Positions 47,214 through 57,639 of a stretch of DNA of 64,000 bases are shown here, piece after piece. The DNA comes from an uncultured Candidatus Saccharibacteria bacterium (GTDB lineage: Bacteria; Patescibacteriota; Minisyncoccia; Phycocordibacterales; CAYRGE01). The stretch's first letter is position 1, and each line of letters starts with the position of its first letter. The notes beneath the pieces are model-generated. The model ran no database searches and was not told where the DNA came from. It saw only the letters and a program-made list of their open reading frames with translations. The translations under genes were made by a program, and so were the position numbers. Where the stretch lies: the NCBI GenBank assembly GCA_964612415.1, contig CAZTCT010000003.1, forward strand, positions 10,477-74,476, given 5' to 3'.

Positions 47214-48518
47214 GTGGAACGTTCACTTACAAAAAGACGAAAAACAGTGTGGTTATTGAGCGCTATGGCGCTTATAGCCGTGCCGCTACTCTCTGCCTCA
47301 GCGCAGACAAGCGTTTCTGAACGGCAGGCGCAACTTGAAGCCCAACTTAAAGCAATTGAAGAAGAGATCAGCCAACAGCAGGTTATTTTGCAGGAAAAAC
47401 AGAGGGAATCTGTCTCACTTGAGCGTGATGTTGCGATTCTCGATGCCCAAATAGAGAAGACCAAACTTTCATTGCAAGCAAGTAATCTTGCAATTCGGTC
47501 TCTTGAGGGGGACATTTCCGGGAAGGAAAATACCATTCGCGATCTCGATGGCCATTTAGATAAACAAAAGGCAGCACTTGCCGAACTCATTCGCAGGACT
47601 GGGGAAATGGACGACTACTCTCTTGTTGAAGTAGCGCTCTCAAAAGAAGCGCTCTCTGACTTTTTTATTGATCTTGATTCATTCTCATCTATTCAGCAGA
47701 CTCTCCAAGAAGTAGCTGTTGAAATCGTAGAGACAAAAAATACTACAGAGACACAAAAGCAGGCGCTTGAGGAGAAGAAACAGGAGGAAGTAAACATTAG
47801 GCAACTTCAGCAGCTTGAGCAACAGCGTCTCCAGGCAGCAGAAAGTAAAAAGAATAGCTTGCTCAAAGAAACGAAGGGTCAAGAGGCGGTATATGCGACC
47901 ATGATCAAACAGCGCCAACAGACTGCCGCGGAGATTCGGACTGCGCTCTTCCAACTGCAGGGCTCAGCAGCAATCCCATTTGAAAAAGCACTTGATTACG
48001 CGACAAGGGCAGGGGCAAAGACTGGTGTTCGTCCGGCGCTCATTTTGGGTATTGTCGCTGAAGAATCAAACCTTGGCGAAAATGTGGGTACGGGAACATG
48101 GACCGTGGATATGCATCCAACTCGCGATGTACCTGTATTTAAAGAGATTACGGCAAGACTTGGACTTGATCCTGATGCAATGCCAGTATCAAAGAAGCCT
48201 TGGTATGGCTGGGGAGGCGCTATGGGGCCTGCGCAGTTTATCCCTTCCACTTGGGTATTGTATGAGGATCGCATAGCTGCGCTCTCTGGCAACAATCCTC
48301 CGAACCCATGGAATCCAGAGGACGCATTTATGGCAGCAGCAATATTGCTCGCTGATAACGGAGCCACTGATCATGCCTATGCGTCTGAGCGCCTCGCTGC
48401 ACTGCGCTATTTTGCCGGCTGGGCAAATGCCAAGAAGGCTGCCTACGCTTTTTACGGGGATGATGTGATGGATTTGGCCACGAAATACCAGAGCCAGATC
48501 AATATCCTAAACGGCTAG
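47214..48518 (+). CDS. secreted coiled-coil protein with C-terminal lytic transglycosylase (SLT/MltB-like) domain
   Basis: Signal peptide VWLLSAMALIAVPLLSASA; ~250 aa Q/E/L-rich coiled coil; C-term ILGIVAEESNLGEN (catalytic Glu) and GPAQFIPSTW lytic-transglycosylase motifs. Confidence 0.65.
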   Translation: MERSLTKRRKTVWLLSAMALIAVPLLSASAQTSVSERQAQLEAQLKAIEEEISQQQVILQEKQRESVSLERDVAILDAQIEKTKLSLQASNLAIRSLEGDISGKENTIRDLDGHLDKQKAALAELIRRTGEMDDYSLVEVALSKEALSDFFIDLDSFSSIQQTLQEVAVEIVETKNTTETQKQALEEKKQEEVNIRQLQQLEQQRLQAAESKKNSLLKETKGQEAVYATMIKQRQQTAAEIRTALFQLQGSAAIPFEKALDYATRAGAKTGVRPALILGIVAEESNLGENVGTGTWTVDMHPTRDVPVFKEITARLGLDPDAMPVSKKPWYGWGGAMGPAQFIPSTWVLYEDRIAALSGNNPPNPWNPEDAFMAAAILLADNGATDHAYASERLAALRYFAGWANAKKAAYAFYGDDVMDLATKYQSQINILNG

Positions 48519-48816: not shown

Positions 48817-48850
48817 GCGTGCGTGCCCTGTAGGGCACGCACGCTTTGCT
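48817..48850 (+). terminator. intrinsic terminator (GCGTGCGTGCCCT-gt-AGGGCACGCACGC + T-rich)
   Basis: 13-bp perfect stem 48817-48829 / 48832-48844, then TTTGCTTTA. Confidence 0.8.
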
Positions 48851-48863: not shown

Positions 48864-49826
48864 ATGGACCTAACTCCATACAAAGAGAATCCGAAGACCG
48901 CATACCTTGTTGCGGAATACGAACGCCTTGAGAAGGAAGAGGCGCGTGTTCATGATGTATTGGCTCAAGACCCAACACTCGCAGAGCTTGCTCAGTCTGA
49001 ACTTGAAGATTTACGTATCCAAAAGGAAAGTGCGCAGAAGCAAATGGAACAAATCGTTGCAACTGAAAAAGAAGAAGCAAAAACTCCCAAGGAGCTTATT
49101 CTTGAAGTTCGTGCTGGTGCGGGAGGAGATGAGGCAGCTCTTTTTGCACGTCAACTTGCTGAAATGTATGAGAAGTATGCCGCGCAAAAAGGGTGGGATT
49201 TTACCAAAGTGGATTCTTCCGAAAATGAGATTGGTGGGTACAAAGAAGCTTCTTTTGAGATTAAAGGGAAAGATGCTTATCGTGCACTTGAACATGAAAT
49301 GGGTGTACATCGTGTGCAGCGTGTGCCAGTGACAGAGAAGGCGGGGCGCATACACACATCAACAGCTTCCGTCGCCATTTTGCCTGTTTTTGAGCGGAGA
49401 AATACATTAATCAATCCTGCCGATATTGAGATGGAGTTTACTCGTTCTGGCGGAGCAGGAGGACAGAACGTGAATAAAGTTGAAACAGCGGTTCGTCTTG
49501 TCCACAAGCCCTCTGGTATCGTGGTCCGCTGCCAAAGCGAGCGCACGCAGCAGCGTAATCGCGAGAAGGCCATGCAGATTCTTGCAGCAAAACTAGAAGA
49601 ATTAGAAACATCCAAAGATGCAGATGCTATTGCTGAGAAGAGAAAGACCCAAATTGGCACAGGAGACAGATCTGAAAAGATTCGTACGTATAATGTGCCA
49701 CAAGATCGTGTCACAGACCATCGTATTAAGGAGACATGGAGTAACGTTGAAGGGATACTTGGAGGTAGTCTGGGGGAAATTTCAGAAGCACTTGTAAAAG
49801 CCGCGGAAGAAAAATCAGGAGATTAA
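48864..49826 (+). CDS. prfA: peptide chain release factor 1
   Basis: GGQ motif [42 protein letters not shown]; PxT-region RVQRVP; start taken as ATG 48864 because the TTG at 48846 lies inside the terminator hairpin. Confidence 0.85.
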
Positions 49827-49877
49827 TGTGGATAAGTTTGTTTCTGGAGTGGTGTGTGGTGCGCTAGAATAAAGCCA

Positions 49878-51650
49878 ATGAAGAAAATAACGCACTATTC
49901 GCGCGTTGCTCTCGATACGCTAGTTTTTTCTCTGTCTGGGCTTGCGCTTGGAGCGGCCGGAATGTTCTCGTTCTTTTTCTTGATGACGGCTTTCCCTGAC
50001 GCTGGCACTGTAGTGGTGCCACCAACACTTCATGGACCACAGATTGCATTTGCAGCACCACCGGCTGGATATACGGAATTGAAAGGATTTGCATGGGCAG
50101 GATCACACAACAGTGGAACGATCGGATCGCCGGATATTGGAAGTGGGTGGATTAGTTTCAATAGGAAAGATTGCGATACCGATGGGGATGGCGATAACGA
50201 TGTTGCTGCATGTGGTGCACTTGGGAGTGCTGTGCCTGACTATCAAGTCTCTGTTGATACGAGCAATTACTCCAATGAGCTACCAAACCCAACCACAGGT
50301 GATTTTACCGGGTATGCCTGGAGCCCAAACATTGGGTGGATATCTTTTAATCCAGCTGACCTTGTTGGGTGTCCTGTTGGTGCAGCAAACCCTGATGGAG
50401 ATGGTACGACTTGTGAGGCAACAATAAATTGGTATACCGGCACTGTGGCTGGCTGGGCTCGCGTTCTTTCAAACGATACCGCCGCGGGATGGAGCGGATG
50501 GATTCGGCTGGACCTCCCTGTTCCTTATGGGGGGTATTCTGTTAAGCCAGCGTTCACTGGGTATGCCTGGGGCGCAGACAATGTTGGTGGGTCTCCGACG
50601 CCTGGGGTTGGGTGGATAAGTTTCAGCAGTTTTGATTGTGACACTGATCAGAATGGCACCATTTCTGGTGGTTTGCCCGCGTGTGGAACTACCGGGAATC
50701 CAATTGCGCAATATGGGGTTACTTTAGGCAGTATTGCCCCTGGGCTTCCTATTGTGTTTGCTCCAACCGAGATTGTTCTAGATACCCCTCCTGGGTATGC
50801 GCAAGCAAATCTAATATACGAATCCTACAACGGGTTTTACCCAATTGATCCTGATGATGAGCCAGTTCAGTATGGCTTTGACTGGGATGGCGATGGGCTT
50901 GGGTATGTATGGGAAACCAACCCCGTTAATGGTCTACCGGTCTATATCGGTGCGCCAGGCACTGGAGGTACGTCAACGCCTCGATGGACCACCTTGGGCA
51001 TGAAGACATTTAATGTGAAGTTGCGTGATGGCGATCTGAATGAATCAGCCGTACGCTCATATTCTATAAATGTGATTCCTCCACCACCAACAGCAACCTT
51101 TACTGTCCAGCCGACCAATGCGCTTGGTACGGGAATCACAGGAAGTACAGTGGGAATTTTGGATGGGGGTACTCCAGGAGCTTTTCTTTATTCATGGACA
51201 AGTAATCATACAACGTCATGTGCTGTTACCCGAAATCCAGGATCTGTAGCGGTTGCTTCGTCTGGTTCATCAAATTCATCTGGGTCAGGGGCAGATACCC
51301 CTGCGACCAACACTACACAGTATTCAATTACCTGCCAGGGATTGCCATTTTCTAATCCCGCTAGTGTCACCATTAATCGCTCTGTCACTGTAAACACCAC
51401 ATGTTGGAACAATATTGACGACGACCCTGCGGGGAGGATTGGCAATGGACTTTGTGACTATCCATCTCAATCCTGTCCGGGAGTGATTGCTGGAGATCCA
51501 AATTGTATGGACCCTGATCCAGCAACATATCCTCATGAGGGTGGCACAGGAGTGGCCGCGGCGTGTGGCAACGGGGTGTGTAACGTTGAGGCAGGGGAGG
51601 GGCCATTTACCTGCACCACCGACTGCAGGCAGAACTTCCAGGAGCGATAG
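49878..51650 (+). CDS. large secreted/cell-surface repeat protein (GxAW...GWISF repeats, Cys-rich C-terminus)
   Basis: Signal/TM ALDTLVFSLSGLALGAAGMFSFFFLMTAF; four or more repeats of G[FY]AW(x4-10)GWI[SR][FL] with DCDTD(G/Q)(D/N)G; PPPP linker; C-terminal CxxC-rich region. Confidence 0.55.
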   Translation: MKKITHYSRVALDTLVFSLSGLALGAAGMFSFFFLMTAFPDAGTVVVPPTLHGPQIAFAAPPAGYTELKGFAWAGSHNSGTIGSPDIGSGWISFNRKDCDTDGDGDNDVAACGALGSAVPDYQVSVDTSNYSNELPNPTTGDFTGYAWSPNIGWISFNPADLVGCPVGAANPDGDGTTCEATINWYTGTVAGWARVLSNDTAAGWSGWIRLDLPVPYGGYSVKPAFTGYAWGADNVGGSPTPGVGWISFSSFDCDTDQNGTISGGLPACGTTGNPIAQYGVTLGSIAPGLPIVFAPTEIVLDTPPGYAQANLIYESYNGFYPIDPDDEPVQYGFDWDGDGLGYVWETNPVNGLPVYIGAPGTGGTSTPRWTTLGMKTFNVKLRDGDLNESAVRSYSINVIPPPPTATFTVQPTNALGTGITGSTVGILDGGTPGAFLYSWTSNHTTSCAVTRNPGSVAVASSGSSNSSGSGADTPATNTTQYSITCQGLPFSNPASVTINRSVTVNTTCWNNIDDDPAGRIGNGLCDYPSQSCPGVIAGDPNCMDPDPATYPHEGGTGVAAACGNGVCNVEAGEGPFTCTTDCRQNFQER

Positions 51651-51684
51651 CAAAAAGGGGATTCCAGGAGGCTTTTAGGCGGCA

Positions 51685-51713
51685 TTGCAATTCGCCACCC
51701 TTTCTGTTAGACT
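51685..51713 (+). promoter_or_regulatory. sigma70-like promoter: TTGCAA -35, 17-nt spacer, TAGACT -10, 8 nt upstream of rpsB ATG
   Basis: TTGCAA 51685-51690; TAGACT 51708-51713; ATG 51722. Confidence 0.35.
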
Positions 51714-51721
51714 TTGGGTTC

Positions 51722-52468
51722 ATGACTGAAAAGAATTCAATTACCAAAGAAGACGCAGGGCTTATTGACCGCATGTTTGCGGCAGGAGCCCACTATGGAT
51801 TCCTTCGCTCTCGAAGGCATCCTTCTGCGCGCCCATTCCTTTTTGGGACGAAGGACAAGGTTGAAATCATCAATCTTGAGAAGACCCTTGATGCATTGAA
51901 AGAAGCGGAAGAGTTTGTTGCATCTCTTGCTGCAAGCGGTAAAAAGGTGCTCTTTATTGGTACCAAAAACGAAGGGCGCCGCATCATCAAAGGGGGCGCA
52001 AAAGCTATCGGAATGCCGTACGTTGACATCCGATGGATCGGAGGCATCTTCAGCAATTTTTCTGAGATCAAGCGCCGCATTGACTGGATGAAGACACTTG
52101 AAGATCGACGCGAGCGAGGAGAGCTTCAAAAGTACACTAAGAAAGAGAGATTGCTTTTTGATCGCGAGATCGAAGATCTTGAGCGAAACTTTGGCGGGTT
52201 GCGTGATATGGACACATTGCCTGCGGCGGTATTCATTCTTGATGTGAGACATGAAGAGATTGCGCTTAAAGAAGCACGCAAATCAAAGATCCCAGTTATC
52301 AGTCTTTCAAGTTCAGACTGTGACTTTAGGGGGATTGATTATCCACTTCCTGCAAATGATAGTTCAGTTGCAAGTATTACATTTTTCGTAGATCGTCTTG
52401 TAGAGGCATATAAGGCTGGCAAGATGAGCGCGAAGCCCGCACAAAAAGAAGCTGGTTCAGAGAAATAA
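51722..52468 (+). CDS. rpsB: 30S ribosomal protein S2
   Basis: LIDRMFAAGAHYGFLRSRRHPSARPFLFGTKDKVEIINLEKT. Confidence 0.9.
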   Translation: MTEKNSITKEDAGLIDRMFAAGAHYGFLRSRRHPSARPFLFGTKDKVEIINLEKTLDALKEAEEFVASLAASGKKVLFIGTKNEGRRIIKGGAKAIGMPYVDIRWIGGIFSNFSEIKRRIDWMKTLEDRRERGELQKYTKKERLLFDREIEDLERNFGGLRDMDTLPAAVFILDVRHEEIALKEARKSKIPVISLSSSDCDFRGIDYPLPANDSSVASITFFVDRLVEAYKAGKMSAKPAQKEAGSEK

Positions 52469-52498
52469 TATTGCTAGGGGAGTTAAGTTCTTTTAGAT

Positions 52499-53089
52499 AT
52501 GATAACCACAGACCAAGTAAAAGAATTACGAGAACAAACAGGCATCTCTGTTATGCAGTGCAAGAAGGCGCTGGAAGAGGCTGGTGGGGATATGGACAAG
52601 GCTCTTTTGTTGCTTAAAACAAAAAGCAAAGCCGCAGCTTCAAAAAAGGCTGACCGCACATTGGGTGCGGGTATTGTACAAGCATATATCCATACTGGTG
52701 GTACAGTGGGAGCGATGGTCGAGCTTTCATGCGAGACCGATTTCGTTTCTCGCAACGAAGAGTTTAAGTCACTTGCCTATAACATTGCACTTCACATTGC
52801 TGCAATGAAGCCCCAATACATCAACCCAGAAGATGTTTCCGATGCTGACAGAGAGAAAGTAAAGGCTCTCTTTGTTGAGGACGCAAAAGCGTCTGGCAAG
52901 CCTGTGGCAATGCAGGAGAAAATGGTAGAAGGAAAACTCGGGGCTCACTTCGGAGAGAAAACACTTCTTACACAGGCGTTTGTGAAGGAGCCAGAAGTTA
53001 CCATTGGGGAATTAATAGAGCAAGCAATTCAGAAATTCGGAGAAAAGATTGTGGTGACGCGCATGACATGCTTTGCAGTTGGTGCATAG
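52499..53089 (+). CDS. tsf: elongation factor Ts (short form)
   Basis: MITTDQVKELREQTGISVMQCKKALEEAGGDMDKALLLLK (UBA-like N-term) + single dimerisation domain. Confidence 0.85.
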   Translation: MITTDQVKELREQTGISVMQCKKALEEAGGDMDKALLLLKTKSKAAASKKADRTLGAGIVQAYIHTGGTVGAMVELSCETDFVSRNEEFKSLAYNIALHIAAMKPQYINPEDVSDADREKVKALFVEDAKASGKPVAMQEKMVEGKLGAHFGEKTLLTQAFVKEPEVTIGELIEQAIQKFGEKIVVTRMTCFAVGA

Positions 53090-53093
53090 CACT

Positions 53094-53528
53094 ATGGAAT
53101 CTTTTCTTATCGGACTATTTTCATTCTCAGTACTTGGCGCAGGATTGCTCATTGCGGTGCGCCTGGTGGGGCCGTTTGGTCGTCGCTTTGACGATGTTAC
53201 TACGGGAAGAGAGAGTGTTGATCAAGTAGGGGACTTTCTCTTCATATTCTTCCCCATGTTCAAATTCCTGGGGAAGATCGGGTTTTTCAAAGCGCTAGAA
53301 TTTTTGCACGAAAAGACACGAACGATGACTTCTCGCGCCATGAGGACCGCGAAGAAAATCAAAGAGGAGTACCAGAGGTCTCTACTTGATGCAATCAGGC
53401 TTCGCGTTGCAAAGCATCTCTTCAATCACCCATCCACCCACGAGCACAAAGCGACAACCTCATTTTTCTTGAAGGACATTGCTGAATATAAAAAGAAAAT
53501 CAGCAATGGGCACCACGAAGCACCTTAG
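53094..53528 (+). CDS. hypothetical membrane protein
   Basis: N-terminal TM MESFLIGLFSFSVLGAGLLIAVRLV; no recognised domain. Confidence 0.4.
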   Translation: MESFLIGLFSFSVLGAGLLIAVRLVGPFGRRFDDVTTGRESVDQVGDFLFIFFPMFKFLGKIGFFKALEFLHEKTRTMTSRAMRTAKKIKEEYQRSLLDAIRLRVAKHLFNHPSTHEHKATTSFFLKDIAEYKKKISNGHHEAP

Positions 53529-53597
53529 TATTGCGCTTGGTGGCCAGAATAGGGTAGTATCTTCTAGTACACCTGGGCAGATATACAACAAACAAAC

Positions 53598-53615
53598 GCC
53601 ACCTTAGCTGTTTTG
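53598..53615 (+). repeat. tRNA-Thr 5'-fragment (GCCACCTTAGCT + GTTTTG), degenerate partial copy upstream of the tRNA
   Basis: 12-nt identity to tRNA positions 1-12 followed by 6 nt matching the anticodon-arm segment. Confidence 0.6.
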
Positions 53616-53676
53616 GCAGATATGGAACAAACAGCAAGGACGTTAATGTAATGAGGTAGAACAAAATAATACACAC

Positions 53677-53752
53677 GCCACCTTAGCTCAGTTGGTAGAG
53701 CAACTGTTTTGTAAACAGTAGGTCCCCGGTTCAAGCCCGGGAGGTGGCTCCA
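53677..53752 (+). tRNA. tRNA-Thr (anticodon UGU), CCA encoded
   Basis: Cloverleaf: acceptor GCCACCT/AGGTGGC, D-arm GCTC-AGTTGGTA-GAGC, anticodon stem ACTGT/ACAGT with loop TTTGTAA (TGT at 34-36), T-arm CCCGG-TTCAAGC-CCGGG, 3' TCCA. Confidence 0.9.
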
Positions 53753-53885
53753 CAAAGTGCGAGACGACTAAGCGAGCAAACTGCTTTGCTCGCGTCCGGG
53801 CTTGAAAGACGGAGCCCTCCGCTTTTGGCGGAGGCGAGTCCGGGCAGGAGGCACTTATGAGCGGAGCGAATTTGTGACCTGACGC

Positions 53886-53906
53886 CAAGCCCGGGAGGTG
53901 GCTCCA
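53886..53906 (+). repeat. 21-nt direct repeat of the tRNA-Thr 3' end (CAAGCCCGGGAGGTGGCTCCA), att-like
   Basis: Exact copy of tRNA positions 56-76, located 133 nt downstream of the tRNA. Confidence 0.8.
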
Positions 53907-53908
53907 TA

Positions 53909-53947
53909 AAATAAACGGCTCAACCGATCGGTTGAGCCGTTTATTTT
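53909..53947. terminator. second exact copy of 24-nt palindrome CGGCTCAACCGATCGGTTGAGCCG flanked by AAATAAA / TTTATTTT
   Basis: Palindrome 53916-53939 identical to 44378-44401. Confidence 0.75.
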
Positions 53948-54728: not shown

Positions 54729-57089
54729 ATGCTCATTTCCTATAGGTGGCTTTCTACATATTTCAAAGACCCGTTGCCTGCACCCCGTGACCTTGCTGAT
54801 GTTATCACTATGCATGCGTATGCGGTTGATCGGGTTTATGAACAAGGAGGAGACACCATTTTAGATATAGATGTGTTGCCAAACCGTGCGCCTGACAGTC
54901 TTTCTCATCGAGGCGTTGCAAAAGAAGTCGCTGCGCTTTTACAAAAAGAGCTTGTGTTGCCCGCACGCTTCCTCCCCGAGAAATTATCTGAACATGAGGG
55001 GATAAACATCAAGATTGAGAATTTGTATGAATGCGGACGGTATGTGGGAAGGGTGATACACGGTGTTAAGATTGGCCCTTCTCCTGATTGGCTTGTTGAG
55101 CGGCTCACTGCCGTTGGACAAAAGTCTATTAACAACATTGTTGATATTACAAATTACATTCTTTTGGACATGGGGCAGCCGATGCATGCTTTTGATCTGG
55201 ATAAAATATCCGGGAAAGAAATTTCTGTCAGGAAGGCAAAAGACGGTGAGCATATAAGCACACTTGATGGGAAAGATGTTGTACTTACATCAACAATGCT
55301 TGTTATTGCTGATACGGAAGGACCACTTGCCATTGCGGGGGTTAAAGGGGGTAAAAAAGCAGAGATTACTAGCGAAACGAAAAGCATCGTTCTTGAGGCT
55401 GCTCATTTCAACTCTGTTTCTGTGCGGAAGACCGCTCGAAGCACTGGGATTTTGACTGACTCTTCGAAACGTTTTGAAAACGGCATTACCCCAGAGTTGG
55501 CTGGGTATGCCATGGATGAAGCATCTGCGCTCATCTATGAAATTTTTCCTGAAGCGCAAGTTTCTCCGACGATCGACCAGTATCTTTGGAAACCAAATCC
55601 ATATACCACAGGACTGAGCACCGCCGAAGCCAATGCCATACTGGGGACAAAGCTCGACGATGACCAAGTTAAAGAAGCCCTAGAGCGCGTTGGGTGCACT
55701 GTGTATTTTGAGAGGAATCCTATTTCGCGCGTGTTCACTGTCGCAAAACAAGGCGTAGGAGCTACTTACAAAAATGGAGCGAGCATACAATATCAGGCGC
55801 CACACTTATTTGATTGCTCGTCTTTTACTGCGTATGTTTTTGCTCAAGCAGGAGTGAGTATCCCGAGAATGACCGTGGATCAATATATGTATGGTGCAGA
55901 TATTGGAGAGCATGATCTTTCCCTCGGGGACTTGGTATTTGCTAATACTAAATCTGGACAGATCCATCATGAAGGGAAAGAATTTTTCCCTGGCAAAGCA
56001 GTGCCTGAAGGAGTTGATCATTGCGGGATCTATCTTGGCGATGGAAAGATCGTGCATGCTACACGGCACGGAAAAGGTAAGGTAGTTATAGAGGAGCTGG
56101 CAGGTAGCGAAGCGTTTGAGAATATCATTGGGTATAGAAGGATTCCCGAAGTCCATGCCCCAAGGTTTGTGGTGGTAGTGCCGGCAGAGAGACTTGATCT
56201 GCGGGACGTTGTCTCGCTCTCTGAAGAAGTGGGACGTATTGTCGGCTATGATACATTACCGGACAGTATACTTTCAAAATTATCTCAGTCTCCACAAATC
56301 AACAAGAGTTTCTACTACACACAAGCAATCAGGCAAACCCTTAAGGAAGAAGGATACTCTGAGGTAATAACCTATGCGTTTACAGACAAAGGAGAGATTG
56401 AGACTGCAAATCCAATTGCATCAGACAAAGGTTTTCTTCGCCCCAATCTGACCAGTGGAATCACAAAAAGTCTCGAAATGAATGCGCGAAATGCTGATTT
56501 AATCGGTGAGAAGTGCATCAGAATATTTGAAATTGGGACTGTGTTTACAAAAACGAGTGAGCACCTCTCGTTTGGTATTGGGGCATGGCATCCGAAGGGC
56601 TATAAAGATAAAGCGATAGATGAAATCACTCGTGTACTCGGTGTCCTTGAGAAAAAGCACGGGTGTGTGTTTGGGGGCAGCTCGCAAGGAGATAAAGAGA
56701 AAGCAATTTACGAATCAAATTTTAAAGAAATCATTCTTTCCTCACCGGAACCGTCGGACTACGGTTCACTCTTTGAAGCACAAGAGAAAGTGATTGAATA
56801 TAAAAAGATATCTCCGTATCCGTTCGTTACTCGTGATATCGCATTTTGGGCAAGTGGCGGGACGAAAGAGGAGGAGGTAATGGCCACCTTAGTATCTAGC
56901 GCTGGACCGCTTTTAATCCGAGAGCCGAGACTCTTTGATGTATTTGAGAAGAAAGATGAAGGGAAGGTATCATATGCGTACAGACTTGTTTTTCAATCGT
57001 ATGAAAAAACGCTCACTGATGATGAGGTGAATAAGCACATGGAAAATGTAGTACGTGCGGTTGAAGAAAAAGGGTGGACAGTGAGATGA
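54729..57089 (+). CDS. pheT: phenylalanine--tRNA ligase beta subunit carrying an inserted NlpC/P60 (papain-like) domain
   Basis: B1 N-term MLISYRWLSTYFKD; B3/4 ...MHAFDLDKISGKEISVRKAKDGEHISTLDGKDVVL...; B5 start; then DCSSFTAYVFAQAGVSIPRMT...GDLVFANTKSG...DHCGIYLGDGKIVHATRHG (NlpC/P60 Cys-His-His) at ~55750-56110; B5 end/B6-7 resumes at RFVVVVPAERLDLRDV; C-terminal FDX-ACB. Confidence 0.85.
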   Translation: MLISYRWLSTYFKDPLPAPRDLADVITMHAYAVDRVYEQGGDTILDIDVLPNRAPDSLSHRGVAKEVAALLQKELVLPARFLPEKLSEHEGINIKIENLYECGRYVGRVIHGVKIGPSPDWLVERLTAVGQKSINNIVDITNYILLDMGQPMHAFDLDKISGKEISVRKAKDGEHISTLDGKDVVLTSTMLVIADTEGPLAIAGVKGGKKAEITSETKSIVLEAAHFNSVSVRKTARSTGILTDSSKRFENGITPELAGYAMDEASALIYEIFPEAQVSPTIDQYLWKPNPYTTGLSTAEANAILGTKLDDDQVKEALERVGCTVYFERNPISRVFTVAKQGVGATYKNGASIQYQAPHLFDCSSFTAYVFAQAGVSIPRMTVDQYMYGADIGEHDLSLGDLVFANTKSGQIHHEGKEFFPGKAVPEGVDHCGIYLGDGKIVHATRHGKGKVVIEELAGSEAFENIIGYRRIPEVHAPRFVVVVPAERLDLRDVVSLSEEVGRIVGYDTLPDSILSKLSQSPQINKSFYYTQAIRQTLKEEGYSEVITYAFTDKGEIETANPIASDKGFLRPNLTSGITKSLEMNARNADLIGEKCIRIFEIGTVFTKTSEHLSFGIGAWHPKGYKDKAIDEITRVLGVLEKKHGCVFGGSSQGDKEKAIYESNFKEIILSSPEPSDYGSLFEAQEKVIEYKKISPYPFVTRDIAFWASGGTKEEEVMATLVSSAGPLLIREPRLFDVFEKKDEGKVSYAYRLVFQSYEKTLTDDEVNKHMENVVRAVEEKGWTVR

Positions 57090-57090
57090 C

Positions 57091-57639
57091 ATGAAAAAAG
57101 TTTTGTCGGTCCCATATATATCCCAACGCAAAGAAACCCAAGATCCATTTTGGTGGGAGAGGGCATGTGGTATTTTCGTGGTTTCAATGCTGCTTAAGTA
57201 TTTTGGGGAATCATTCAAATCGATAGACGATCTACTTAGTGAAGGGGTAAAAACGGGAGGGTATATTCAAAATGTCGGGTGGCGGCACGACGCTCTTGTT
57301 GATTTGGCGCGCGCCCATGGCGTTGCGCTTGAACGAAGAGAATATAAAGCTCAGTCGTCTAATGACGGGGAAACACTCCTTGTGCAAGGACTAGAAGATA
57401 TTGTAAGTGCAATTGATGGAGAAAAACCTGTGGTTGTTTCTGTGACACGCCCAAGTGGGTCTTCGCACCTCGCGGTAGTGGTTGGGTACGACAAACAGGA
57501 GGGTCATAAAGGGTTCTATATTCACGACTTTGATCCCGACGCAGAAGGGCCTGGGGAGGGGCAATTTGTACCTGAGGACTTGCTTAAATCATCATGGCGC
57601 AGACTTGCTATTTTTTGTAAAAATAAGCCCGCAAAATAA
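57091..57639 (+). CDS. Peptidase_C39-like (BtrH-like) domain protein
   Basis: VPYISQRKETQDPFWWERACGIFVVSMLLKYFG (C39_2-like VPxIxQ...CG signature) and downstream His in SSHLAVVVGYD; start 1 nt after pheT stop. Confidence 0.55.
   Translation: MKKVLSVPYISQRKETQDPFWWERACGIFVVSMLLKYFGESFKSIDDLLSEGVKTGGYIQNVGWRHDALVDLARAHGVALERREYKAQSSNDGETLLVQGLEDIVSAIDGEKPVVVSVTRPSGSSHLAVVVGYDKQEGHKGFYIHDFDPDAEGPGEGQFVPEDLLKSSWRRLAIFCKNKPAK

Follow-up and report, generated by a model that had tools for sequence, protein, structure and literature searches.

A divergent member of a large Patescibacteria family of predicted exported proteins with a four-hairpin, tryptophan-rich module

We analysed a gene for a large, repeat-containing protein in a 64,000-nucleotide stretch of DNA (the window) from an uncultured Candidatus Saccharibacteria bacterium (contig CAZTCT010000003.1). 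The local gene order is ribosomal protein L25, a transmembrane (TM) and coiled-coil protein with an SLT_2 lytic transglycosylase domain, L31, release factor 1 (RF1), the target gene, ribosomal protein S2, and elongation factor Ts (EF-Ts). The predicted protein is rich in Gly, Thr, Ala, Pro, and Ser, and it contains 15 Trp and 16 Cys in total. Its start codon is ambiguous. GTG at 49854 would add eight cytoplasmic residues and has a GGAG 4 nt upstream, and ATG at 49878, which has no clear Shine-Dalgarno sequence, is the start in the gene call for a nearly identical gene on a sister contig.

The most conspicuous part of the protein is a Trp-rich repeat. A preliminary description of this DNA had reported "four or more" copies of about 40 amino acids (aa). 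The four copies it quoted are present, but there are exactly four, they belong to one module, and their spacing is irregular (75, 47, and 36 aa). In order along the protein, the units have GFAW at residue 70 and GWISF at 90 (unit 1, or A), GYAW at 145 and GWISF at 153 (unit 2, or B), GWAR at 192 and GWIRL at 207 (unit 3, or C), and GYAW at 228 and GWISF at 245 (unit 4, or D). The spacing is irregular because of insertions of 12 and 9 residues in the turns of units 1 and 4, together with long loops between units.

Several comparisons show that the four-fold repeat of the window protein is real. A 17-aa hairpin profile, which we built from homologues alone, scores 41.5 bits against the window protein, versus a maximum of 6.1 bits in 500 shuffles. 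Unit B by itself is a complete canonical hairpin (about 40 bits), units A and D match the profile as two halves, and unit C is a diverged variant of the hairpin. We also compared the units to each other, as profiles that covered 55 family members. The hhalign probabilities were 99.4% for A-B, 99.0% for A-D, 98.6% for B-D, 89.4% for A-C (E = 2e-6), 66% for B-C, and 61% for C-D. The AB half matched the CD half with a probability of 98.7% (E = 2.5e-16). Given these matches among units and between halves, the module most likely arose by the duplication of a two-hairpin half.

The module is what the window protein shares with a large family: homologues align to residues ~60-255 only. A hidden Markov model (HMM) of the family matches the window protein with 146.7 bits (E = 2.4e-44) across HMM positions 16-163, with the units in the order A-B-C-D. 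Among the six-frame translations of the 64-kb window, the target open reading frame (ORF) is the sole match to this model. A word-indexed homology search found 129 relatives, nearly all of them unnamed or annotated as "hypothetical protein", from metagenome-assembled genomes of Patescibacteria, Parcubacteria, or Paceibacteria. We also searched 1.84 billion cluster representatives (clustered at 50% identity) exhaustively with a profile, which matched 9,666 of them at E ≤ 1e-3, 7,729 at E ≤ 1e-10, and 3,055 at E ≤ 1e-30. When we scanned one genome per GTDB species with eight canonical sequences as queries, we found at least 556 stretches that encode the module. By its sequence, then, the window protein is not a one-off: it diverges from, but belongs to, an existing and very large family of "hypothetical proteins". 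The novelty lies in the domain family as such and in its probable fold; the sequences are already in the databases, and exported binding proteins of modular build are a familiar kind of protein.

The family is essentially restricted to Patescibacteria. The preliminary description had suggested a survey of the motif across this group, and our profile and genome searches show that the repeat marks a large and almost wholly patescibacterial family. We considered the best 80 of the at least 556 species loci in more detail, and all of our counts of loci, neighbors, and taxon titles refer to these 80. Almost all of their titles are of Parcubacteria-type Patescibacteria. (The labels include Nealson-, Giovannoni-, Niyogi-, Yonath-, Kaiser-, Taylor-, Gribaldo-, and Sungiibacteria, and Paceibacterota; others are placeholder names of the type "uncultured Ca. 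Saccharibacteria".) Four loci are labeled otherwise, as Pirellulales, Gammaproteobacteria (two loci), and Elusimicrobiota. These loci are likely to be mis-binned, because three of them are on contigs of just 2.9-6.7 kb (the other contig is 36 kb) and three of the four share a Patescibacteria-type neighbor gene. The window itself is also patescibacterial. Its S2 protein has one identical entry in the database; no other relative exceeds 60% identity, and every named one is from Patescibacteria, Yonathbacteria, Paceibacterota, or Minisyncoccota. In short, the link of this protein to Patescibacteria is borne out by its relatives, by the species loci, and by S2. We also considered a phage origin or phage-borne copies and rejected them: there was no relative in the IMG/VR viral contigs and no structural match in BFVD.

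Across the family, the consensus hairpin is sGYAWSxNIGWISFN and the module has about 150-220 aa. Unit A (sGyAWSxNIGWISFN) is followed by a variable loop and a YGV strand, unit B (fsGYAWSxNIGWISFN) is followed by GCPxGxC, and unit C (GWARALS...GWDGWIxL) is followed by another YGV strand. Unit D (GxAWG.dv.GWISFN) is followed by a variable loop, often closed by a pair of cysteines, and a YkV strand. The Trp and Gly residues of the hairpin are invariant, and the loops vary in length from a few residues to about 40. The loops after units A and D often have the form C-D-x-D-x-[DN]-G-x-[IVF], which resembles calcium-binding loops of the DxDxDG type (33 of 259 proteins). The window protein has two DxDxDG-type loops, DCDTDGDGDND...C (with DTDGDGDND at aa 101-109) and DCDTDQNGTISGGLPAC (with CDTDQNGTI at aa 254-262). 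Six of its cysteines lie in the module, as three pairs that close loops. From these motifs, we predict that the loops form disulfides and bind calcium. A minority of family members (P0011, P0020, P0072, P0160, and P0208) have long arrays of hairpin units instead, with up to 12 stretches and a period of about 30-43 aa. Since a few members have such tandem arrays, the hairpin may also build open repeat structures in those proteins.

Members of the family seem to be Sec-exported, non-catalytic, and extracytoplasmic. Of 250 members, 240 have a hydrophobic segment at the N-terminus, the median start of the first hairpin is residue 43, and a context of the signal peptidase I type, (A/V)-x-A|G-(S/T)-x-(D/H)-N-(V/L)-S-G, is conserved 7-10 residues before unit A. 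C-terminal TM-like segments are rare (2 of 259 members), and none of the 259 has LPXTG. The window protein was described as having a signal or TM anchor, and it does have an N-terminal hydrophobic segment (aa ~12-38), with a Pro-rich linker after it (aa 39-64). It lacks the conserved (A/V)-x-A|G context. Because its hydrophobic segment is long and there is no AxA|G site before unit A, unlike in the canonical members, this segment is probably an uncleaved signal-anchor rather than a cleaved signal peptide.

The stretch after the module has a median length of 229 aa in the 227 proteins with an N-terminal module and 218 aa in the 32 proteins with other domains before it. In canonical members, this stretch is Ig_Rha78A_N plus PKD. 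In the 69 larger members, all of the partner domains that we found are of extracellular types that serve for binding or as stalks: Ig_Rha78A_N (22), PKD (16), LamG (3), fn3 (2), and single cases of FG-GAP, bacterial TSP3, DUF2341, beta-helix/NosD, Flg_new_2, CARDB, ALK glycine-rich, Big_2, Big_9, and Kelch. None of these 69 proteins has an enzyme as a partner domain, wall hydrolases included. PKD/Ig stalks are also found in bacterial adhesins and collagenases (such as ColH; Ig_Rha78A_N), but this is a shared accessory part, and it does not explain the repeat module.

The repeat had been put forward as belonging to no described family, with a clear profile match to YD, PQQ, or a similar family as the finding to watch for. 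No such match turned up. The window protein has no match at E ≤ 10 in Pfam-A, NCBIfam, or the PDB sequences. When we compared 58 aligned module sequences to Pfam, also at E ≤ 10, we found only scattered noise and nothing consistent: the commonest family was DUF7038, in 4 of the 58 (best E = 0.075), and YD, PQQ, Kelch, FG-GAP, and WD40-type families were absent, as was CW_binding_1. Ten canonical full-length members had NCBIfam or Pfam matches on the downstream Ig and PKD domains and none on the module. Profiles of the module found nothing meaningful among the PDB sequences. Furthermore, the motif strings IGWISF, GWISFN, AWSENIGW, and GYAWS are in no relevant paper, according to a search of 8 million full texts, in which the two matches were irrelevant. 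(Unit A of P0036, aa 23-64, has a match to NF050071, the LBA0864 S-layer-associated protein family, with E = 0.042 and 12 bits; this is probably noise.)

Structure prediction points to a small barrel-like domain. The AlphaFold2 (AF2) model of the window module, from the 58-sequence alignment, is all-beta, with a predicted local distance difference test score (pLDDT) of 75.4 and a predicted template modeling score (pTM) of 0.76. With Foldseek, it had no significant match in BFVD or in the PDB, where the best E was 0.54 and HphA, TbpB, and LbpB were among the sub-threshold matches. The model of the most compact member (141 aa, with minimal loops) has a pLDDT of 90.1 and a pTM of 0.83. In this model, each unit has about three strands: a long strand (x-x-G-Y-A-W-S), a short strand (G-W-I-S), and Y-G-V. 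Its best Foldseek match in the PDB is hemophilin from Acinetobacter baumannii (7re4; E = 0.009, probability 1.00, query-normalized template modeling score 0.55, root-mean-square deviation 3.4 Å over 143 columns). This is followed by HphA from Vibrio harveyi (8gm3; E = 0.03), HphA from Haemophilus parainfluenzae (8glo; E = 0.42), the isolated C-terminal barrel of HpuA (5ee2; E = 0.44, target-normalized score 0.55), and weaker matches to TbpB entries. No match reached E ≤ 1e-3. The preliminary description had raised the possibility of a propeller or a beta-helix, but among the PDB matches of the compact model, neither of these was better than E of about 3.6, and there was no solenoid. A beta-trefoil, a hemopexin-like four-bladed propeller, and a choline-binding solenoid, which we considered for a fold with 3-4 strands per unit, were not among these matches either. 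We therefore predict from the AF2 models and Foldseek that the module is a compact, pseudo-fourfold, up-and-down beta-barrel-like domain, and not a propeller or a beta-helix.

The closest solved fold, by a marginal match, is the eight-stranded barrel of hemophilin/HphA, HpuA, TbpB/LbpB, and fHbp. As in HphA-type barrel proteins, the module would be a small, soluble, antiparallel beta domain in a Sec-exported, extracellular, non-catalytic protein. However, the module has no sequence relationship to the hemophilin, HpuA, or TbpB barrels (the identity is 10-15%). Profile searches of the PDB sequences gave no match to HphA, HpuA, or TbpB at E ≤ 10, and there was no Pfam match such as TbpB_B_D. Also, the four-fold sequence repeat is obvious in the module, whereas these barrels lack one.

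We then considered the C-terminal half of the window protein. A profile of five sequences for aa 296-400 (the window protein and its local relatives, three from P0056 and one from P0229, which itself has a weak PKD_4 match) matches 4xed with E = 6.8e-10, the PKD domains of ColH (4u6t/4u7k) with E of about 5e-4, and 6aem, annotated as "PKD domain", with E = 0.037. Pfam does not detect a PKD domain in the single window sequence. The profile matches confirm that this region is a PKD domain, in agreement with the Ig/PKD-like stretch that had been noted before. The PPPP linker that had also been noted follows directly, at aa 401-404. The next domain (aa 405-506, with two Cys) has the pattern ..SWTS.N.TSC....Y.ITC.. 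and resembles the domain after the module in several members. With phmmer, it matches P0183, P0077, P0071, P0104, and the module protein of locus L049 at E of about 1e-3; it has no match in Pfam or the PDB. We presume that it has an Ig-like fold.

The Cys-rich tail (aa 507-590) has relatives at the very C-terminal ends of other module proteins (L042 with E = 5e-5, P0240, and L057). The C-terminal region had been credited with 14 or more Cys, which is too many: there are 10 after the PPPP linker, of which 8 are in the last 82-84 residues. The motif CG[ND]xxC..GE..CxxDC occurs 7-8 aa from the stop in five family proteins and in six ORFs from the loci. Besides the window protein (51564-51647), the proteins with this four-Cys ending are P0061, P0174, P0240, L034, L035, L042, L057, and L069, and they often end with EEF or EF. 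Because all six of the matches among the 1,154 ORFs of the 80 loci are in module proteins, the four-Cys motif seems to be a family-specific C-terminal ending, used by a minority of members. Its role may be in docking or sorting. Overall, local searches found weak relatives within the family for every C-terminal part. (A word-indexed search with the C-terminal 300 aa, 50748-51647, found no match, and missed even P0001, which is 100% identical in this region. So, word-search negatives are unreliable for this Gly/Thr/Ser-rich, low-complexity sequence.) The features of the gene are listed in Table 1.

Table 1. Features of the target gene, in window coordinates.
Feature	Position	Strand	Basis
Whole gene, 590 aa plus stop	49878..51650	+	ORF scan and translation
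N-terminal hydrophobic segment, aa ~12-38	49911..49991	+	Kyte-Doolittle scan
Four-hairpin, Trp-rich module, aa ~65-283	50070..50726	+	Family HMM match; homologue coverage
Unit A (LKGFAW...GWISFN), 12-aa insertion in hairpin turn	50076..50162	+	Sequence; unit profile
Cys99-Cys112 loop with DTDGDGDND (DxDxDG-type)	50172..50213	+	Read from sequence
Unit B (DFTGYAWSPNIGWISFN), canonical hairpin	50301..50351	+	Unit profile, 40.2 bits, E = 8e-15
Cys165-Cys179 loop (GCPVGAANPDGDGTTC), counterpart of the family-conserved GCPxGxC	50370..50414	+	Sequence; alignment
Unit C (TVAGWARVLSNDTAAGWSGWIRL), diverged hairpin copy	50442..50510	+	Sequence; alignment; hhalign
Unit D (FTGYAWGADNVGGSPTPGVGWISFS), 9-aa turn insertion	50553..50627	+	Sequence; unit profile
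Cys254-Cys269 loop with CDTDQNGTI (DxDxDG-type)	50637..50684	+	Sequence; family comparison
PKD domain, aa 296-400, WDGDG motif plus insertion	50763..51077	+	Profile matches to PDB PKD domains
PPPP linker, aa 401-404	51078..51089	+	Sequence
Two-Cys beta-rich domain, aa 405-506	51090..51395	+	phmmer to family members
Cys-rich tail, aa 507-590, 8 Cys	51396..51647	+	Sequence
Terminal four-Cys motif (CGNGVCNVEAGEGPFTCTTDC), 7 residues before the stop codon	51564..51626	+	Motif scan

Elsewhere in Parcubacteria, the module gene has a recurrent setting. The genes for trigger factor and ClpP come first, followed by between one and five genes of an unannotated secreted family that we call AWTEP; after the module gene come those for RNase Y, a histidine kinase (HK), a response regulator (RR), PilB, and PilC. 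The module gene is usually single-copy per locus. In the 80 loci, its neighbors include AWTEP (40 loci), RNase Y (25), PilB (19, with pilB within 6 kb), and PilC (8). AWTEP genes are on the same strand as the module gene, in up to five tandem copies; examples are in L037 (1676-5308), L011 (2966-5281), and L054 (1183-5871). The proteins have a signal peptide and then [AF]W[TN]EP[ST]..PP.GN..AP[LI]N.G...Q.K.G.L, with no match in Pfam. One AWTEP protein (L051, 11251-12069) has a motif like that of thrombospondin type 1 (SWGACSLSCGSGTQNRTVSC). The 64-kb window contains none of the AWTEP, RNase Y, HK/RR, PilB, or PilC families.

On balance, we think it probable that the target is a divergent member of a Patescibacteria family of non-catalytic proteins that are exported by Sec and are either secreted or at the surface, and that the barrel-like four-hairpin module of this family is a ligand-binding scaffold. 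In the arrangement that we infer for the module's topology, disulfides, calcium binding, binding function, and ligand, the conserved aromatic strands would build the scaffold, and the hypervariable loops between strands, stiffened by Ca2+ and disulfides, would be the binding surface. The ligand of the surface-exposed module would most plausibly be a glycan or a cell-envelope polymer, and the PKD and Ig-type domains would be spacers. The window protein would be tethered by its uncleaved N-terminal TM anchor, with the barrel module near the membrane, while the PKD domain, the PPPP linker, the two-Cys domain, and the four-Cys C-terminal knob would project outward. The lectin or adhesin function and the link to episymbiosis that were suggested previously may hold for the window protein.

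Several points weigh against this reading. The conserved aromatic residues of the module could be purely structural. The module is strongly conserved throughout the class, and the cassette of module plus Ig/PKD is constant. Both features argue against host-specific recognition by the conserved part, and they fit a conserved ligand or association with the cell's own envelope at least as well as host-specific adhesion. And the window gene lacks the typical neighbors of the family, and its N-terminus and tail are atypical, so the role of the window protein may differ from that of canonical members.

The main rival to the binding-scaffold reading is that the module, alone or with the Ig/PKD part, is a cassette for self-envelope anchoring: it would bind the cell's own wall, S-layer, or envelope polymer non-covalently and display the domains fused to it. 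We consider this possible but unlikely. The logic would be analogous to that of the SLH, CWB2, LysM, and choline-binding modules of monoderms. Something must retain typical members, because they have a cleavable signal peptide and lack a C-terminal TM segment or LPXTG. Also, the module is highly conserved while its partner domains vary, the length of the post-module stretch is constant (medians of 218-229 aa), the extra domains are N-terminal to the cassette in 32 of 259 members, and the gene is usually single-copy and syntenic in Parcubacteria. However, the cassette alone is the commonest architecture, with no obvious "cargo"; many members extend C-terminally instead; and the TM anchor of the window protein would make a wall anchor needless. 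The known wall-binding repeats (choline-binding CW_binding_1 of about 20 aa, ChW of about 50 aa, SLH, GW, and LysM) are likewise short, aromatic- or Gly-rich hairpin repeats in exported proteins without a covalent anchor, and they too combine a conserved module with variable partners. But the module has no profile or structural similarity to any of them, and among the 69 larger members it has no fusions to wall hydrolases or other enzymes, which are the usual setting for wall-binding modules. Also, those repeats form an open solenoid array of variable copy number, while the hairpin module has a fixed four units that form one globule in most members. More generally, it is highly improbable that the module is a known repeat in disguise (YD, a PQQ, Kelch, or FG-GAP propeller, choline-binding/CW_binding_1, ChW, or a beta-helix). 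The likeness is superficial, in that all have short Gly/Trp/aromatic beta-hairpins, and ChW did match one of the 58 module sequences, with E = 1.4. Against this are the lack of matches at E ≤ 10 for the protein, the lack of anything consistent among those 58, and a confident model without matches to propellers, solenoids, or beta-helices.

The barrel-like fold raises the alternative that the family members are secreted capture proteins, with the module as a "forager" like a hemophore, TbpB, or lipocalin that obtains a small molecule or a host macromolecule for a metabolically dependent cell. The hemophilin/HphA, HpuA, and TbpB barrels are the sole structural neighbors of the module, and HphA is Sec-exported, cut by signal peptidase I, and released (bioRxiv 10.1101/2023.03.29.534853). 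Like the family, HphA has no lipobox, and typical family members lack any anchor. Nevertheless, we judge this alternative to be quite improbable. The structural match is marginal (best E = 0.009, with 10-15% identity). It is the N-terminal handle or clamp domain that holds the ligand in HphA and TbpB, and not the barrel, whose own role is unknown or is in Slam-dependent secretion (bioRxiv 10.1101/2023.03.29.534853). Unlike these cargo proteins of Slam and the type 11 secretion system (T11SS), the family is from a different phylum, without an outer membrane, and has neither a handle or clamp domain nor a Slam/T11SS partner. The module is at the mature N-terminus, directly after the signal peptide, while barrels of the hemophilin/TbpB type are at the C-terminus. 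Transporter genes are not consistently adjacent in the 80 loci. The gene neighborhoods suggest yet another role, as a component of a surface apparatus with AWTEP proteins and/or type IV pili (for instance, a subunit associated with a pilus or fiber). This is improbable as well. One to five AWTEP genes adjoin the module gene on the same strand in half of the loci, and pilB or pilC is nearby in some of them, but rny and the two-component pair stand between the module gene and pilB/pilC, which looks like general Parcubacteria synteny (tig-clpP-...-rny-HK-RR-pilB-pilC). Furthermore, the proteins have no pilin-like N-terminus, and the window has none of the AWTEP or pil neighbors.

A bolder form of the binding-scaffold reading, which we regard as doubtful, is that the module is a new family at the level of the fold, a Patescibacteria-specific, Sec-exported beta-barrel scaffold whose hypervariable loops, stapled by Ca2+ and disulfides, recognize a host surface or capture host molecules, together with AWTEP and near the type IV pilus genes. 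If so, the module would be a counterpart, in monoderm episymbionts, of TbpB/hemophilin "forager" proteins, and the module plus AWTEP would be a previously unrecognized host-interaction apparatus of Paceibacteria. A large part of bacterial diversity is patescibacterial, and Patescibacteria live attached to other microorganisms. To our knowledge, their attachment molecules have been identified in just a few Saccharibacteria, and these molecules are type IV pili. Whatever its function, the module is the hallmark of about 10,000 clusters of exported protein sequences from the Parcubacteria/Paceibacteria branch, and it gives annotators a domain that can be named. The compact form of about 140 aa is also a target for structure determination: its predicted model is confident, and any solved neighbor is distant at best. 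If the module is only structural or for anchoring, then it would remain useful as a new domain of unknown function, with no new mechanism. Module proteins are concrete candidates for surface proteins in co-culture work with Paceibacteria. In Paceibacteria that parasitize methanogens, highly expressed proteins with a signal peptide and Ig-like and PKD domains were proposed to have a role in attachment to the host (Kuroda et al. 2024, PMC10936435). These are from the same group of organisms and have the same downstream architecture, which is a lead only; the N-terminal hairpin module is not described in that study.

Returning to the window, the genes after EF-Ts are a 151-aa ORF without a Pfam match (53073-53528), tRNA-Thr, PheS, and PheT. 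The neighbors of the target gene in the window are housekeeping genes. We rejected a conserved operon of the target gene with them, because only 1 of the 80 loci shares part of this arrangement. There is a strong terminator-like hairpin at 48817-48844 (12 pairs, 10 of them G-C), directly after the gene for L31 and before prfA, and no comparable site between prfA, the target gene, and rpsB. The lytic transglycosylase protein (47214-48518) has a TM segment at its N-terminus in addition to a long coiled coil and the SLT_2 domain, and it has an orthologue in a Nealsonbacteria locus (L010) that is partly syntenic. The tRNA-Thr(TGT) is at 53677-53752, between the 151-aa ORF downstream of tsf and pheS. 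PheT (54729-57089) contains an NlpC/P60 insert between its B5 and core domains (PF00877, E = 5.8e-17, aa 355-414, with DCSSF and HCGIY; about 55791-55970). This fusion is unusual. The next gene (57091-57639) is similar to Peptidase_C39_2.

Finally, the sister gene is on a Logan contig from SRR12009705 (L001), is 99% identical, and has the same context (RF1, the gene, S2, EF-Ts). The differences between this contig and the window are unevenly distributed: there are 66 substitutions (about 4%, mostly synonymous) in 48964-50612, which is prfA plus the first 245 codons of the target gene, and 3 substitutions in the 3.1 kb of 50613-53756. All seven of the amino-acid differences from the sister strain are within the repeat module. 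We rejected diversifying selection on the module as the explanation, since the nucleotide differences also cover prfA and are mostly synonymous. Instead, this looks like a mosaic or recombination boundary inside the target gene, near 50612. The end of the sister contig (4984-5035) matches 53886-53937 of the window in both orientations, with a gap of about 130 bp relative to the window, which indicates an inverted repeat of about 30 nt around 53918-53947.

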